Assembly: GCF_036507355.1 (NCBI RefSeq)
Contig: NZ_AP027877.1
Reading direction: 5' to 3' (one strand)
Source of the DNA: Escherichia coli
GTDB taxonomy: Bacteria > Pseudomonadota > Gammaproteobacteria > Enterobacterales > Enterobacteriaceae
Length of the DNA: 64,000 nt
Shown: one piece after another, positions 1,336 through 38,372 of the stretch
Layout of the letters: every line of letters begins with the position of its first letter
Position numbering within the stretch: position 1 is the first letter of the stretch
The notes under the pieces: model-generated
Seen by the model: only the letters and a program-made list of their open reading frames with translations
Told to the model about the DNA's origin: nothing
Databases searched by the model: none
Program-made: the position numbers and the translations under genes

Positions 1336-1353
1336 TGTGAGAGATCTCTTACA
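1336..1353. promoter_or_regulatory. 18-bp inverted repeat TGTGAGAGATCTCTTACA upstream of csrB, matching the UvrY/SirA box
   Basis: Near-perfect palindrome read directly, about 175 bp upstream of the csrB 5' end. Confidence 0.6.
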
Positions 1354-1526
1354 GACTCTGTAGGAGATCGCCAGGAAATAAGCGAATACTTAAAAAGATA
1401 AGAATCGCTATTTTCATTTAAAAACAACATGTTGCTTGTTAATTCCTAACTTTCATATGAAATTTTCCTTAAGGCATTGTCTGTAAGCGCCTTGTAAGAC
1501 TTCGCGAAAAAGACGATTCTATCTTC

Positions 1527-1893
1527 GTCGACAGGGAGTCAGACAACGAAGTGAACATCAGGATGATGACACTTCTGAAGGACACACCAGGATGGTGTTT
1601 CAGGGAAAGGCTTCTGGATGAAGCGAAGAGGATGACGCAGGACGCGTTAAAGGACACCTCCAGGATGGAGAATGAGAACCGGTCAGGATGATTCGGTGGG
1701 TCAGGAAGGCCAGGGACACTTCAGGATGAAGTATCACATCGGGGTGGTGTGAGCAGGAAGCAATAGTTCAGGATGAACGATTGGCCGCAAGGCCAGAGGA
1801 AAAGTTGTCAAGGATGAGCAGGGAGCAACAAATGTAGCTGGAATGCTGCGAAACGAACCGGGAGCACTGTGAATACAGTGCTCCCTTTTTTTA
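1527..1893 (+). ncRNA. csrB: CsrB small RNA (CsrA-sequestering)
   Basis: About 370 nt with more than a dozen CAGGATG/AGGA motifs, no long ORF, ending in a GC hairpin (ggagcactgt...acagtgctcc) plus T-run at 1861-1893. Confidence 0.85.
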
Positions 1894-1937
1894 TTCCTGC
1901 TATCCTTCGCGGCAGTTTTTCTTATTGAGGTTGCTTT

Positions 1938-2267
1938 ATGACCACTCATGACCGCGTTCGTCTCCAGTTGCAGGCGCTTGAAGCGTTACTGCGTGAACAT
2001 CAGCACTGGCGAAACGATGAACCCCAGCCGCATCAATTTAATAGTACCCAACCGTTCTTTATGGACACCATGGAACCACTGGAGTGGTTGCAGTGGGTGC
2101 TGATCCCGCGAATGCACGATTTGTTAAATAACAACCAGCCGTTACCGGGCGCTTTTGCCGTTGCTCCCTATTATGAAATGGCGCTGGCGACGGACCATCC
2201 GCAACGCGCGCTTATTCTGGCTGAGTTGGAAAAACTGGATGCTCTTTTTGCGGATGATGCGAGCTAA
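1938..2267 (+). CDS. yqcC: DUF446 family protein YqcC
   Basis: 109-aa ORF; stop overlaps truC start (TAATG). Confidence 0.85.
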   Translation: MTTHDRVRLQLQALEALLREHQHWRNDEPQPHQFNSTQPFFMDTMEPLEWLQWVLIPRMHDLLNNNQPLPGAFAVAPYYEMALATDHPQRALILAELEKLDALFADDAS

Positions 2268-3049
2268 TGCTGGAAATACTCTATCAGGATGAATGGCTGG
2301 TTGCGGTAAATAAACCCTCCGGCTGGCTGGTTCACCGCAGCTGGCTGGATCGCGACGAGAAAGTAGTGGTCATGCAAACCGTGCGTGACCAGATAGGCCA
2401 GCATGTTTTTACTGCTCATCGTCTGGACCGACCAACTTCTGGTGTGTTGTTGATGGGATTATCCAGCGAGGCCGGACGGCTGCTGGCACAACAGTTTGAA
2501 CAGCACCAAATCCAGAAATGTTACCATGCGATTGTGCGCGGCTGGTTGATGGAAGAAGCGGTGCTGGATTATCCACTGGTGGAAGAACTGGACAAAATCG
2601 CTGATAAATTTGCCCGCGAAGATAAAGGCCCGCAGCCAGCAGTGACGCATTATCGCGGTCTGGCGACCGTAGAAATGCCGGTAGCGACCGGACGTTACCC
2701 GACCACGCGCTACGGCCTGGTGGAACTGGAGCCGAAAACCGGACGCAAACATCAGCTTCGCCGACATCTTGCCCATTTGCGTCATCCGATTATTGGCGAT
2801 AGCAAACATGGCGATTTACGCCAGAATCGCAGCGGTGCTGAGCATTTTGGTCTTCAGCGGTTAATGCTGCATGCCAGTCAGTTGTCATTGACGCATCCTT
2901 TCACTGGCGAGCCGCTGACTATTCACGCGGGCCTGGACGACACCTGGATGCAGGCGTTATCACAATTTGGCTGGCGCGGTCTGCTTCCTGAAAATGAAAG
3001 GGTTGAGTTCAGTGCGCCATCGGGTCAGGATGGAGAGATAAGTTCCTAA
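2267..3049 (+). CDS. truC: tRNA pseudouridine(65) synthase TruC
   Basis: 260-aa ORF with RluA-family motifs (HRLDRPTSG). Confidence 0.9.
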   Translation: MLEILYQDEWLVAVNKPSGWLVHRSWLDRDEKVVVMQTVRDQIGQHVFTAHRLDRPTSGVLLMGLSSEAGRLLAQQFEQHQIQKCYHAIVRGWLMEEAVLDYPLVEELDKIADKFAREDKGPQPAVTHYRGLATVEMPVATGRYPTTRYGLVELEPKTGRKHQLRRHLAHLRHPIIGDSKHGDLRQNRSGAEHFGLQRLMLHASQLSLTHPFTGEPLTIHAGLDDTWMQALSQFGWRGLLPENERVEFSAPSGQDGEISS

Positions 3050-3950: not shown

Positions 3951-5303
3951 ATGAGTTCTTTAAGTCAGGCTGCGAGCCGTGTGGAAAAACGCACGAATGC
4001 TCGTTACTGGATAGTGGTGATGTTGTTTATCGTCACATCCTTCAACTACGGCGACCGCGCTACGCTTTCTATTGCCGGTTCGGAAATGGCCAAAGATATC
4101 GGCCTTGATCCCGTGGGAATGGGCTATGTGTTCTCTGCCTTCTCATGGGCTTATGTTATCGGGCAGATCCCTGGTGGTTGGTTGCTGGATCGTTTTGGTT
4201 CAAAACGCGTCTACTTCTGGTCGATCTTTATCTGGTCGATGTTTACCTTGCTGCAAGGCTTCGTCGATATCTTTAGTGGATTCGGCATTATCGTTGCCCT
4301 GTTTACTCTGCGCTTCCTGGTCGGGCTTGCTGAAGCGCCATCTTTCCCCGGCAACAGTCGCATTGTTGCGGCCTGGTTTCCGGCGCAGGAAAGGGGAACG
4401 GCGGTGTCGATTTTTAACTCCGCTCAATACTTCGCAACGGTGATCTTCGCGCCGATTATGGGCTGGCTGACGCATGAAGTGGGCTGGTCACACGTCTTCT
4501 TCTTTATGGGCGGTCTGGGCATTGTCATCAGCTTTATCTGGTTGAAAGTCATCCACGAGCCAAATCAATATCCGGGGGTAAATCAGAAAGAGCTGGAGTA
4601 CATCGCCGCGGGTGGCGCGCTGATCAATATGGATCAGTAAAACACCAAAGTTAAAGTGCCGTTCAGCGTGAAGTGGGGGCAGATCAAACAACTGCTCGGG
4701 TCACGGATGATGATCGGCGTTTATATTGGTCAGTACTGTATCAACGCCCTGACTTACTTTTTCATTACCTGGTTTCCGGTTTATCTGGTGCAGGTGCGTG
4801 GGATGTCGATTCTGAAAGCGGGCTTTGTGGCTTCCGTTCCGGCGGTTTGCGGTTTTATCGGCGGTGTGCTGGGTGGGATTATTTCCGACTGGCTGATGCG
4901 CCGCACGGGATCGCTGAACATTGCGCGTAAAACACCGATCGTAATGGGCATGTTGCTGTCGATGGTGATGGTGTTCTGCAACTACGTCAACGTTGAGTGG
5001 ATGATCATCGGCTTTATGGCGCTGGCCTTCTTCGGTAAGGGCATTGGGGCGCTGGGTTGGGCAGTAATGGCAGATACCGCACCAAAAGAGATCAGCGGTC
5101 TTTCCGGTGGCCTGTTCAACATGTTCGGTAACATTTCTGGCATCGTCACGCCAATCGCAATTGGTTATATCGTTGGCACGACTGGCTCCTTTAATGGGGC
5201 GCTGATTTATGTTGGTGTTCATGCCTTAATCGCGGTACTGAGCTACCTGGTGCTGGTGGGCGATATCAAGCGTATCGAGCTGAAACCTGTCGCGGGGCAA
5301 TAA
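3951..5303 (+). pseudogene. gudP: Glucarate/galactarate MFS transporter GudP, interrupted by one in-frame TAA at 4638-4640
   Basis: Track ORFs 3951-4640 and 4656-5303 are in the same frame and together give a full 12-TM MFS protein; only one stop codon separates them. Confidence 0.75.
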
Positions 5304-5304
5304 G

Positions 5305-6645
5305 ATGACGACACAATCCAGTCCTGTTATTACTGATATGAAAGTCATTCCGGTCGCCGGGCATGACAGCATGTTGCTCAATATTGGTGGTGCGCATAAC
5401 GCATACTTCACCCGCAATATCGTGGTACTCACCGATAACGCCGGGCATACCGGCATTGGTGAAGCACCGGGCGGAGAGGTGATTTATCAAACACTGGTCG
5501 AAGCTATTCCGATGGTGCTGGGCCAGGAAGTTGCGCGCCTGAATAAAGTGGTTCAGCAGGTGCATAAAGGTAATCAGGCCGCCGATTTTGATACCTTCGG
5601 CAAAGGTGCCTGGACTTTTGAATTGCGCGTTAATGCCGTAGCGGCGCTGGAAGCCGCCTTGCTTGACCTGTTAGGTAAGGCGCTGAATGTTCCGGTCTGC
5701 GAACTGTTAGGGCCAGGCAAGCAACGCGAGGCTATTACCGTCCTCGGTTATCTGTTTTATATCGGTGATCGGACCAAAACCGATCTTCCTTATCTGGAAA
5801 ATACGCCGGGCAACCATGAGTGGTATCAGTTGCGGCATCAGAAAGCGATGAACAGCGAAGCCGTTGTGCGTCTGGCGGAAGCCTCACAGGATCGCTACGG
5901 CTTTAAAGATTTTAAACTTAAGGGCGGCGTGTTACCTGGCGAGCAAGAAATCGACACTGTTCGTGCATTGAAGAAACGCTTCCCGGATGCGCGGATTACC
6001 GTTGATCCCAACGGTGCATGGCTGCTTGATGAAGCCATTTCTCTGTGCAAAGGGCTGAATGATGTTCTCACCTATGCCGAAGATCCATGTGGCGCAGAAC
6101 AGGGCTTCTCCGGACGTGAAGTGATGGCGGAGTTTCGGCGGGCGACCGGCTTGCCCGTTGCGACTAACATGATCGCCACCAACTGGCGCGAAATGGGTTA
6201 TGCGGTGATGCTCAATGCGGTAGATATTCCACTTGCCGATCCGCACTTCTGGACGCTTTCCGGTGCAGTCCGCGTGGCGCAGCTTTGCGACGACTGGGGG
6301 CTGACCTGGGGCTGCCATTCTAATAACCATTTCGATATCTCTCTGGCGATGTTTACCCATGTGGGCGCGGCGGCACCGGGTAATCCTACCGCTATCGATA
6401 CCCACTGGATTTGGCAGGAGGGCGATTGTCGCCTGACCCAAAATTCGCTGGAGATTAAAAACGGAAAAATTGCCGTTCCTGATGCGCCCGGTCTGGGCGT
6501 GGAACTGGACTGGGAACAGGTACAAAAGGCACATGAGGCCTATAAACGTCTGCCTGGCGGTGCGCGTAACGACGCAGGCCCGATGCAGTACCTGATCCCC
6601 GGCTGGACCTTTGACCGTAAACGTCCCGTTTTCGGCCGTCATTGA
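5305..6645 (+). CDS. gudX: Glucarate dehydratase-related protein GudX
   Basis: 446-aa enolase-superfamily ORF, paralogous to the next gene. Confidence 0.9.
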
Positions 6646-8238: not shown

Positions 8239-10995
8239 TTACCCGAGAATTTTGCTGGCTTCGCGCGCGACATTATCCATCTCGTCCAACAGTTCCAGCA
8301 GCTCCGGCTCCAAATCTTCTTCTTTAGTACCGCTACGTAACTGTTGTTCGATCAGTTGGCAGAGATTCTTCATACGCGGCACACCGCTATAGCCGCAACT
8401 GCCATGCAGTTTATGAATCAAATCAACCAGGCCTTCCGGGTTTTCTCCAACCAGCTGTTCCTCAACTTTGTTGCGAACTTCAGGCAGGAAATCGAGTAAC
8501 ATTTGCAGCATATCGCGCGCCAGATCGGTTTTTCCTGCTGCCTGGCGTAGTGCCAGTTGCCAGTCGAGGGTCGCATTCGGGTTCACCACAATTTCGTTGA
8601 CTTCGGGCGTCACGACGCGAGAGGAAATACCGCTGCCAGGCTTGTAGCGCAACAGCAAATTATGCAATCGCTCTTCTTCAATCGGTTTCGCCAGATAATC
8701 ACTCATCCCTGCGCCAAGCAGCTTCTCTTTTTGCCCGGCCATTGCATGCGCCGTTACCGCGATAACCGGCGTTTGTTGCTGATGGGGGAGTTGGTGGATG
8801 AGTTCGCAGGCCCGAATGCCATCCATGTCCGGCATTTGAATATCCATTAAGATCAAATCGAACGGCATCTGTTTCGCCCGTTCAACCGCCTGATGCCCGC
8901 TATCGCAAAGCTCCACATGTTGCACCATATCTTCCAGCAATGCGCCGATAAGTTTCAGGTTAGCGGGGTTGTCATCAACCGCCATGACTGTCATTGCCAG
9001 CTTACTTTCATCGGTTACAGGCAAAAGCGTGTTTTGTTTGTGATGACAAAATTCCGTCAGGGCAGGCAACAGGCGCGTAGGTGTTAATGGTTTCAGCAGA
9101 CACGCGCCGATACCATCTTGCTTGAGTTTTTCAGCATTGACTTGTGCATGGCAAGGAAGTGCCAGCATCAGGAAATCGGTCATCGATACCGCTTTCGCTA
9201 ATCGCTCATGTTGCATTGTTAGCGGCTCGCGGAAGGTCACCGCGATGCCTAACAACATCATGTCGTAATGCGCGGGAGGCAGCGCGGAGAACGTTGGGCT
9301 ATAAACCACTTCCAGCGGCGTTTCACTTAAAATATCCAGCGTGCATTGCGCTGCTGCGGAGTTTGGTTCGACATAGGCCAGGCGTTTACCGGCGAGGCAC
9401 TGGGTGGATGGCCCTTCAATAATAATGTTCGGGTTCAGATCGAGATTAATGTGGAACCAGAAAGTTGAACCGCGATTCGGCTGGCTATGGAACGAAATAT
9501 CGCCGCCCATTTCATTAACCAGTTTTTGTGTAATCACCAGCCCCAGCCCGGTGCCACCATGACGGCGGGAAATACTGGCATCAGCCTGTCGGAAGGCCTG
9601 GAATAAGCGCGATTGATCGCGTTCAGGAATACCAATGCCGGTATCCCGAATCTGCACTTCAATCTGCACTTTGGTATTACTCAGCGCACGTTTTTCTACC
9701 AGAATATCAATGTTGCCATTCTCGGTGAATTTAATTGCATTCCCCACCAGGTTAGTGATGATTTGCTGTAATCGCAGTGGGTCGCCGATCACGTTATCAG
9801 GCACGTCGCTTTTAATATTGAGCGTCAGTTCCAACCCTTTATCGTGAGAAGAATGTGCCAGCAGAGTAACGACTTCATCCAGCGTGCTGCGTAGTGGGAA
9901 TGGAATACTTTCCAGAATCAGCTTACCTGCTTCCAGTTTCGAGAAGTCGAGAACATCATTAATAATTGCCAGCAAATTATTTGCCGAACGTTCAATCGTA
10001 TTCAGGTGATCGCGCTGCGTTGGTGTTAATTCTGTTTTCAGCGTCAGGCGGGTAAAGCCAATAACACCATTCAGTGGTGTACGCAGCTCGTGTGACATAT
10101 TTGCCAGAAACTCGGATTTAATACGCGCCGCTTCCTGGGCGCGCTTTTTCGCCAGATCCAACTCAACGTTCTGAATTTCCATCTGCTCCAGCGTTTCACG
10201 CAGATCGGACGTCGCCTGGTCGATATTGTGCTGCATCTCTTCGTGATAAGCAGCCAGCGACATTGCCATCGAGTTGATACCGTTTTTCAGCATATCCAGC
10301 TCGCCGAGCATAAATCCTTCCACCCGGCTGTCGAGTTGCCCGCGACGGATGCGGTCGACGGTATTCACCATGTTGCGAATCGGACCGGTTACATCGCGCA
10401 TTAAGCGCCAGCCAAAAATAAGCGCAATACCGATACAAAACAGCATCATCACGCTGGAAATAAAGATCTCTTTATATTGCTGCAAGCGAACCGATTTAAG
10501 ATCCAGCTCAAGCGCAATATATCCCAACATATTTTGACTATTTTTGGCATCGCTACTGGGCGATTCGTCGGGGGAGTAACTCTCAGAAATAATCGGCGTG
10601 CGGAGGATCATAATATCGCCGTCACGAGTGACAGTGAGCTGGCGAGGAAACGGCACGTTGCTGCCGAGCTGCATTGATGAGGGATCAAGATGAAAATTGG
10701 AGGTGACAAAGAGTCGGTTATTTTCATCATAAACCGAAATCGCGCGAACAATATCGGAATGGCGACGATGCAGTACGCTTATTAACTGACCGATAGATTC
10801 GCGATTTTGCAGGCTCATGCCATATTCAGTAGAAACTGCAAGCGGCTCAATAATGCTGGCACCGGCATCTTCCAGTTGACGCTGCAAGTCGTTATAGCGA
10901 TGCACGACGAAAAAGATACTCAGCAATAAACCAATAAGGACGGTCGGTGCCAGGATCAGAATCATCATGCGTGCGCGCAGGCTGTAGTTGGTCAT
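8239..10995 (-). CDS. barA: Hybrid sensor histidine kinase BarA
   Basis: 918-aa ORF with HAMP, HisKA/HATPase, receiver and HPt regions. Confidence 0.95.
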
Positions 10996-35436: not shown

Positions 35437-37148
35437 TGAGCGAAAAACATCCAGGGCCTTTAGTGGTCGAAGGAAAACTGACAGACGCCGAGCGCATGAA
35501 GCTTGAAAGCAACTACCTGCGCGGCACCATTGCGGAAGATTTAAACGACGGTCTGACCGGCGGCTTTAAGGGCGACAACTTCCTGCTGATCCGCTTCCAC
35601 GGCATGTATCAGCAGGATGACCGCGACATCCGCGCCGAACGTGCTGAACAGAAGCTGGAGCCGCGCCATGCGATGCTGTTGCGCTGCCGTCTGCCGGGTG
35701 GAGTTATCACCACCAAACAGTGGCAGGCGATCGATAAATTTGCCGGTGAAAACACCATCTATGGCAGCATTCGCCTGACCAACCGCCAGACATTCCAGTT
35801 CCACGGCATTCTGAAAAAGAACGTCAAACCGGTGCACCAGATGCTGCACTCGGTCGGTCTTGATGCGCTGGCGACCGCTAACGACATGAACCGTAACGTA
35901 CTCTGCACCTCGAACCCTTACGAGTCGCAGCTGCACGCAGAAGCGTACGAGTGGGCGAAGAAAATATCTGAACATCTGCTGCCTCGTACCCGCGCGTATG
36001 CGGAGATCTGGCTCGATCAGGAAAAAGTCGCCACCACTGATGAAGAACCGATCCTCGGCCAGACCTACCTGCCGCGTAAATTCAAAACCACGGTAGTGAT
36101 CCCGCCACAGAACGATATCGATCTGCACGCCAACGACATGAACTTCGTGGCAATCGCCGAAAACGGCAAGCTGGTGGGCTTTAACCTGCTGGTGGGCGGT
36201 GGGCTTTCCATCGAACACGGCAACAAGAAAACCTACGCCCGCACCGCGAGTGAGTTTGGCTATCTGCCGCTGGAGCATACGCTGGCAGTGGCGGAAGCCG
36301 TCGTGACAACTCAGCGTGACTGGGGTAACCGAACCGATCGTAAAAATGCCAAAACCAAATACACGCTGGAGCGCGTGGGGGTTGAGACGTTTAAAGCGGA
36401 AGTGGAGCGTCGCGCGGGGATCAAATTCGAGCCGATTCGCCCGTATGAGTTTACCGGACGCGGAGATCGTATTGGCTGGGTTAAGGGCATTGATGATAAC
36501 TGGCACCTGACGCTGTTTATCGAAAATGGTCGCATCCTTGATTATCCGGGGCGTCCGCTGAAAACCGGCCTGCTGGAGATCGCGAAGATCCACAAAGGTG
36601 ATTTCCGCATTACGGCGAACCAGAATCTGATCATCGCCGGTGTGCCGGAAAGCGAGAAAGCGAAGATCGAGAAGATCGCCAAAGAGAGCGGGTTAATGAA
36701 TGCCGTCACGCCGCAGCGTGAAAACTCAATGGCCTGCGTCTCGTTCCCGACTTGCCCGCTGGCGATGGCGGAAGCGGAGCGTTTCCTGCCGTCTTTTATC
36801 GACAACATCGATAATTTAATGGCGAAACATGGTGTCAGCGATGAGCATATCGTGATGCGTGTAACAGGCTGCCCGAACGGTTGTGGTCGCGCGATGCTGG
36901 CGGAAGTGGGCCTGGTGGGTAAAGCGCCGGATCGCTACAACCTGCATCTTGGCGGCAACCGCATTGGGACACGTATCCCACGGATGTATAAAGAAAACAT
37001 CACCGAGCCGGAAATCCTGGCGTCGCTTGATGAACTGATAGGGCGCTGGGCGAAAGAGCGCGAAGCGGGTGAAGGCTTCGGCGACTTTACGGTGCGTGCG
37101 GGCATCATTCGCCCGGTGCTCGATCCGGCGCGCGATTTGTGGGATTAA
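35436..37148 (+). CDS. cysI: Sulfite reductase hemoprotein beta subunit
   Basis: 570-aa ORF. Confidence 0.95.
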
Positions 37149-37163
37149 CCATCAGCCCGGTCT

Positions 37164-37200
37164 TGTAGGCCTGATAAGACGTGTGAGCGTCGCATCAGGC
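37164..37200. repeat. REP element between cysI and cysH
   Basis: tgtaggcctgataagacgtgtgagcgtcgcatcaggc. Confidence 0.7.
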
Positions 37201-37221
37201 AAGGCAAACAGTGAGGAATCT

Positions 37222-37956
37222 ATGTCCAAACTCGATCTAAACGCCCTGAACGAACTGCCGAAGGTAGATCGCATTCTGGCGCTGGCGGAAACTAACGCCC
37301 AACTGGAAAAATTGGACGCTGAAGGCCGCGTAGCCTGGGCGCTGGATAATCTGCCCGGTGAATATGTGCTTTCTTCCAGCTTCGGCATTCAGGCGGCGGT
37401 GAGCCTGCATCTGGTGAATCAGATTCGCCCGGATATTCCAGTGATCCTCACCGATACCGGTTACTTGTTCCCGGAAACCTACCGCTTTATTGACGAGTTA
37501 ACGGACAAACTCAAGCTCAACCTGAAAGTGTACCGTGCTACCGAAAGCGCAGCCTGGCAGGAAGCACGCTACGGCAAACTGTGGGAGCAGGGCGTTGAAG
37601 GCATTGAAAAGTACAATGACATCAACAAAGTCGAACCGATGAACCGGGCGCTGAGAGATCTGAATGCGCAAACGTGGTTTGCTGGCCTGCGCCGCGAACA
37701 ATCCGGCAGCCGCGCCAATTTACCGGTGCTGGCAATTCAGCGTGGCGTATTTAAAGTGCTGCCGATTATCGACTGGGATAACCGAACGATATATCAGTAT
37801 CTGCAAAAACATGGCCTGAAATATCACCCATTATGGGACGAAGGATATTTATCGGTGGGCGATACCCATACAACCCGTAAATGGGAACCCGGCATGGCGG
37901 AAGAAGAAACGCGTTTCTTTGGCTTAAAAAGGGAATGTGGGTTACACGAAGGGTAA
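37222..37956 (+). CDS. cysH: Phosphoadenosine phosphosulfate reductase
   Basis: 244-aa product starting [14 protein letters not shown] inside the longer track ORF. Confidence 0.9.
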
Positions 37957-38219
37957 ATATTGCCGGATAAATTAAACGCCTCTGTCAGAAATGATGGGGG
38001 CGTTTTTATTTTGCGAGCAGCATTCCTGATTTTAAACGTGAACGCCGCTGGAAGAATTATCAGGTATAGAATGGCGTCGGGTGCTTGAGGCTGTCTGGCG
38101 TTAAGCATTCGCGAGGTTCCAGATGGACAAAAGCCCCAGGCGATATTTCTATCAACCTGAGGCTCGCGTTCGAACGTAGCAATTCGGATGTTAGTCTCTT
38201 CTTTGCAGGGAGGCAAGAC

Positions 38220-38372
38220 ATGCTAACAAAATATGCCCTTGTGGCAATCATAGTACTGTGTTGTACAGTACTGGGATTCACGCTCATGGTAGGCGACTCG
38301 TTATGTGAGTTGAATATCAGAGAGCGTGGTATGGAGTTTAAGGCAGTTCTCGCTTACGAATCGAAGAAGTAG
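38220..38372 (+). CDS. Hok/Gef-family type I toxin (50 aa)
   Basis: [50 protein letters not shown]: single TM segment then the SLCE..IR…AYES.K signature; AGGGAGG RBS 7 nt upstream. Confidence 0.75.

Follow-up and report, generated by a model that had tools for sequence, protein, structure and literature searches.

An ordinary Escherichia coli csrB gene, with its upstream UvrY site, in the syd-yqcC interval of a 64-kb stretch of DNA

In Escherichia coli K-12, the small RNA CsrB binds and sequesters multiple CsrA dimers (PMC4682653). ChIP-exo and DNase I footprinting were used to map the binding of UvrY (Zere et al., 2015; PMC4682653). According to this source, UvrY binds an inverted repeat, and its binding in vivo needs phosphorylation by BarA. 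UvrY is also described there as cross-linking in vivo at -56 to +25 of csrB, a region that gave no footprint in vitro. Expression of csrB requires IHF, for which a putative site was placed between the two UvrY cross-link sites (PMC4682653). A roughly 10-fold higher level of CsrB was reported to depend on IHF, which probably repositions UvrY towards the promoter (PMC4682653). The dependence of K-12 csrB on phosphorylated UvrY and on IHF was established in that work by ChIP-exo, footprinting and mutants. The K-12 gene (b4408) is a 369-nt ncRNA located on the minus strand of NC_000913.3 (2,924,156-2,924,524), between syd and yqcC.

The window considered here is the whole stretch of 64,000 nucleotides of E. 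coli DNA, and positions are counted from its first nucleotide. Positions 1527-1895 on the + strand are an ordinary E. coli csrB gene with a UvrY site upstream. The original prediction, made from the raw sequence, was correct in this identification; the gene was already known and no new biology is involved. The features of the locus and of its neighbourhood are as follows.

771-1316, + strand: syd, 181 aa (NF003439, 287 bits).
1336-1353, no strand assigned: UvrY (BarA-UvrY) upstream activating site TGTGAGAGATCTCTTACA, an 18-bp near-perfect inverted repeat.
1359-1367, + strand: an additional partial half-site, TGTAGGAGA, 5 bp past the downstream end of the inverted repeat.
1422-1437, no strand assigned: putative IHF core, at about -105 to -90, between the UvrY site and the promoter.
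1492-1497, + strand: -35-like TTGTAA, in the conserved block TTGTAAGAC (1492-1500); it can be read as a TGTAAG UvrY half-site as well.
1515-1520, + strand: -10-like GATTCT, separated from TTGTAA by a 17-bp spacer and within the invariant ATTCTAT block (1516-1522).
1527-1895, + strand: csrB gene, 369 nt, CsrA-sequestering small RNA, placed by Rfam RF00018 and by alignment with K-12 b4408.
1860-1892, + strand: csrB intrinsic terminator with an 11-bp stem, a 4-nt loop and T7; last helix of the Rfam consensus.
1938-2267, + strand: yqcC, 109 aa; its position matches the annotated yqcC, and no NCBIfam match was obtained.
2267-3049: truC.
8239-10995, - strand: barA, 918 aa, sensor kinase phosphorylating UvrY (NCBIfam NF008318, BarA equivalog).

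The RNA gene was compared with the CsrB/RsmB covariance model (Rfam RF00018, gathering score 71). The match lay at 1536-1895 (+), scored 384 bits (E = 1e-111) and covered model positions 1-356 of 356, i.e. the full length of the model without truncation. This comparison had been proposed as a check of the original prediction, and its outcome was decisively positive. The sequence was then aligned end to end with csrB of K-12 MG1655 (b4408). The two were identical at 366 of 369 nucleotides (99.2%), and none of the three substitutions removes a GGA. At position 1578, the window has A and K-12 has C, which changes CAGGA to AAGGA in agreement with the Rfam consensus and keeps the GGA. At position 1833, in the 3' region of csrB, T is found in the window and A in K-12. 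At position 1866, the window has A and K-12 has G, so that a terminator pair is A-U in the window and G-U in K-12. The range originally proposed, 1336-1893, takes in the promoter and the upstream site in addition to the gene; the RNA gene alone occupies 1527-1895.

The original prediction had recognized csrB by its array of CAGGATG/AGGA motifs, a reading borne out by the covariance match and by the motif counts. Between 1527 and 1895, there are 22 GGA, 14 AGGA and 6 CAGGATG. The background of the 64 kb, per 369 nt of the + strand, is 5.0 GGA (s.d. 2.6), 0.90 AGGA and 0.09 CAGGATG. The GGA density of the gene is the maximum of the window on either strand, and the runner-up stretch has 13 GGA. 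A count of GGA in hairpin loops, the other check that had been suggested, was also positive: 11 of the 12 Rfam consensus hairpins carry a GGA in the loop, and the twelfth hairpin is the terminator. As a control, the csrB RNA itself was subjected to 300 dinucleotide-preserving shuffles and an independent MFE fold was used. Nine GGA lay wholly within MFE hairpin loops (shuffles 1.8 ± 1.4, maximum 6) and 17 of the 22 were fully unpaired in the MFE structure (shuffles 4.7 ± 1.9, maximum 10). The MFE was -119.9 kcal/mol (z = -4.1 vs shuffles), and the mean unpaired probability was 0.81 for GGA triplets vs 0.43 for all bases. The raw count was less extreme against these shuffles (22 vs 15.1 ± 2.4, with a shuffle maximum of 22 that equals the observed value); the placement of GGA in loops is therefore a stronger signal than their number. 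The terminal hairpin that had also been called is formed by GGGAGCACTGT and ACAGTGCTCCC at 1860-1885, which make 11 perfect, GC-rich pairs followed by TTTTTTT.

Of 5426 complete E. coli genomes, 5425 contain the 711-bp syd-csrB-yqcC region, the median being one place per genome.

Some genomes were odd with respect to this segment. One of the 5426 gave no match, and 22 genomes have no place that by itself covers 80% of the segment. Two places were seen in some genomes, and one of the places is plasmid-borne. These cases may result from IS insertions or deletions at csrB, or from assembly quirks there. In PGAP-annotated RefSeq E. coli genomes, no csrB feature is present between syd and yqcC (H1-H12, L002); the ncRNA is annotated only in the K-12 record. 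This is an annotation gap, not biology. Since the PGAP genomes list no csrB feature, small RNA calls add information beyond routine annotation, and the recognition of a structured small RNA and its activator site from raw sequence was confirmed here.

The gene order of the window is syd, csrB, yqcC, truC, yqcA, gudP, gudX, gudD, barA, rlmD and relA, the reverse of K-12. The K-12 segment 2,912,000-2,926,050 aligns to window positions 14052-1 on the minus strand, in a single block with 98.4% identity. The window had been described as inverted relative to the K-12 map. This holds, csrB being on the + strand here and on the minus strand in NC_000913.3 within one reverse block of about 14 kb, and it concerns the writing strand only. 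Because complete genomes in the collection match the csrB segment on either strand, the orientation tells which strand was written and is no evidence of a biological inversion. The BarA ORF matched NF008318 over residues 1-917 with 1624 bits (cut-off 890), and barA is annotated at the corresponding position in both K-12 and strain PapRG-04-4. The claim that barA lies 7 kb away in the same window was right as to its presence and approximate as to the distance, which from the 3' end of csrB is 6.3 kb to the near end of barA and 9.1 kb to its start codon. This proximity is correct synteny, not mechanistic evidence. The response regulator that binds the box, UvrY, has its gene at another place in the K-12 chromosome. 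The csrB locus serves as an annotation anchor only, by which the window is identified as the E. coli syd-csrB-yqcC-truC-yqcA-gudPXD-barA-rlmD-relA region.

Far from csrB, a match to the Rfam sok antitoxin (RF01794) was found at 38079-38235 (+) with 105 bits. It overlaps an ORF at 38085-38372, the C-terminal 50 aa of which presumably resemble a Hok-type toxin. The ORF at 37069-37956, just upstream of the sok match locus, is one that we take to resemble CysH. Positions 38079-38372 are probably a chromosomal hok/sok locus.

In the UvrY site at 1336-1353, eight of the nine symmetric pairs of TGTGAGAGATCTCTTACA are complementary. The pattern TGTRAGN6CTYACA has its sole match in the 64 kb at this place, for 0.02 matches expected by chance. 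When the K-12 5' end is counted as 1527, the centre of the repeat (bases 1344/1345) is at -183/-182. The original prediction had equated this 18-bp palindrome with the BarA/UvrY response element; it is letter for letter the footprinted site, at the published position (PMC4682653). The accessory half-site pattern TGT..GA.AT is conserved across nine genera. Two direct TGTAAG half-sites (cTGTAAGcgccTTGTAAGac) were also observed at 1482-1498, at the -35 region and shortly before it, within -56 to +25. The second of them, TTGTAAGAC, is nearly invariant across nine genera.

The exact 18-mer was searched for in one genome per species and occurred at no fewer than 120 loci, in Enterobacterales, Vibrio, Photobacterium, Shewanella and others. 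A sample of 18 loci carrying it, from 17 species belonging to Enterobacterales, Vibrio, Photobacterium and Shewanella, was scanned with Rfam. An RF00018 match adjoins the box (within about 300 nt) in 17 of these 18 loci. Distances were measured from the upstream edge of the box to RF00018 model position 1. This distance is 200 nt in the window and 198-202 nt in nine Enterobacteriaceae-type loci. The values obtained were as follows.

Citrobacter, Kluyvera, Klebsiella oxytoca and Enterobacter cloacae: 200 nt.
E. albertii: 199 nt.
Pluralibacter: 201 nt.
Kosakonia: 202 nt.
Pseudescherichia: 198 nt.
Serratia: 197 nt.
More distant genera: 158-301 nt.

As the loci were retrieved by exact match to the 18-mer, its invariance in the box-to-start alignment is circular and is not evidence. 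What was counted as evidence across species is the linkage of the box to CsrB, the spacing and the other conserved blocks.

Particular arrangements were seen at a few loci. In Shewanella gelidimarina (locus L029, box at 5491-5508), the exact 18-mer is present and the 6.9-kb locus gave no RF00018 match at the gathering threshold; there is either a divergent decoy RNA beyond the model or a box serving another target. In Photobacterium piscicola (L069, 4601-6071), a single box stands ahead of two CsrB-family genes in tandem (4902-5227 and 5745-6071). Three separate boxes occur in Vibrio breoganii (L005, L006 and L007), and both of the scanned ones adjoin a CsrB-family match.

The box-to-start regions of 11 sequences from nine genera were aligned. 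The TTGTAAGAC block (columns T163-C171) is invariant or nearly so, the ATTCTAT block (columns A187-T193) is invariant, and GTCGACA at 1527-1533 is invariant or nearly so across the nine genera. The position of TTGTAAGAC falls inside the -56 to +25 region of UvrY cross-linking (PMC4682653). These blocks suggest a weak promoter, TTGTAA-17 bp-GATTCT, with a start at G1527. A generic sigma-70 scan of 1250-2000 found no promoter, because at least four matches out of six were required in each hexamer and GATTCT has three. This miss is consistent with a weak activator-dependent promoter and is no argument against csrB.

Over the 210 bp upstream of csrB, the window differs from K-12 only by five substitutions in the AT-rich spacer, at 1408, 1424, 1428, 1435 and 1446. 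The changes at 1424, 1428 and 1435 affect the putative IHF core. In K-12 this core is AATCAAAATGTTGATT, a perfect WATCAANNNNTTR on both strands; in the window it is AAACAACATGTTGCTT, with one mismatch to WATCAANNNNTTR on each strand. A one-mismatch match has no statistical weight by itself, since the consensus is degenerate and matches at chance frequency (WATCAANNNNTTR with at most one mismatch: 64 matches in the window vs 56 expected). In the same spacer, a TCAA-N4-TT motif reappears from genus to genus at one place in the alignment, and it is this positional conservation, together with the literature, that points to a putative IHF site. Promoters at least 99% identical to that of the window occur in 378 of 5425 complete E. 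coli genomes (about 7%); most, like K-12, are at 97.5%. Even the nearest genome lacks the substitution at 1408. Pluralibacter and Kosakonia have A instead of T in the same IHF column as the window. Given the degenerate consensus and the A in two other genera, the spacer allele was considered as a natural polymorphism of uncertain effect.

The spacer allele could also be read as a lesion of the IHF core, in which case the gene would still be csrB, with an activation weakened or rewired in this lineage. The clustering of the five substitutions within 1408-1446, three of which turn AATCAAAATGTTGATT into AAACAACATGTTGCTT, would fit such an effect, as would the small share of genomes with a window-like promoter. 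This reading is nevertheless unlikely: matches to the consensus are about as numerous as expected, the A for T is shared with Pluralibacter and Kosakonia, and the UvrY site, the -35 and -10 blocks and the RNA are all intact. Moreover, the allele is common to hundreds of genomes and so is not a private lesion. Were IHF binding weakened, CsrB could be lower or differently timed, and the set-point of the Csr global circuit could be shifted in this lineage.

Two other readings replace csrB itself and were given very little credence. In one of them, the region codes for at least one small protein, and its GGA richness is a by-product of codon content. ORFs can indeed be drawn mechanically at 1469-1657 (-, 62 aa), 1551-1691 (+, 46 aa), 1600-1737 (-, 45 aa) and 1734-1949 (-, 71 aa). 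The coding reading was rejected as highly improbable: a Pfam search with a cut-off as loose as E <= 1 returned nothing for the five small ORFs over csrB and its upstream region, the annotations of K-12 and of the nearest RefSeq genome show no CDS between syd and yqcC, and the full-length structured-RNA match explains the whole interval. The original prediction had named the lack of an Rfam match, combined with a conserved coding ORF, as the outcome that would speak against csrB; the reverse was found on both counts. The other reading takes the RNA for a different Csr/Rsm decoy, csrC or a horizontally acquired paralogue, and RF00018 does belong to a clan of related decoy RNAs (CL00106). It is scarcely tenable in view of the 99.2% identity to K-12 csrB over 369 nt, the csrB-specific syd/yqcC context and the single place per genome in nearly all E. 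coli. In addition, the repeat upstream of the gene has the csrB sequence, TGTGAGAGATCTCTTACA, and not that of csrC, TGTGAGACATTGCCGATA. Nothing that contradicts the csrB identification was found in this analysis.

Taken as a whole, the csrB reading is almost certain: a csrB decoy RNA ending at an intrinsic terminator, a weak promoter dependent on UvrY and IHF, and a phosphoryl supply by BarA. The RNA would fold into many short hairpins presenting GGA, typically as CAGGAUG, in their loops and would act as a decoy for CsrA. Its near identity to K-12 CsrB suggests that it sequesters multiple CsrA dimers. Transcription would start at 1527 from the weak promoter and would depend on phosphorylated UvrY bound at 1336-1353, about 183 bp upstream. 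IHF would bend the AT-rich spacer, bringing UvrY towards the promoter, and BarA, encoded 6-9 kb away, would supply the phosphoryl group. The decoy architecture and the activator site are both intact in the window, as are the spacing of that site and the blocks of the core promoter. For CsrA binding and for the dependence on UvrY and IHF, the source strain is presumed to follow the mechanism described in the literature; IHF dependence is assumed, given the spacer substitutions.

Compared with the described systems, csrB of the window is like that of K-12 in its 369-nt length, its flanking genes (syd upstream and yqcC downstream), its hairpin and GGA architecture and its terminator. The UvrY site itself shows no difference from the published K-12 site. 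Both the 18-nt repeat and its -183/-182 centre are identical to those of the footprinted site of E. coli csrB, and the accessory TGTAGGAGA at 5-bp spacing is identical to the one described (PMC4682653). The csrC gene of E. coli, as presented in the same source, is like csrB a GGA-rich decoy for CsrA, and UvrY activates it from a site far upstream. Unlike csrB, it is described there with a weaker inverted repeat, TGTGAGACATTGCCGATA, with no IHF requirement and at a different chromosomal locus (PMC4682653).
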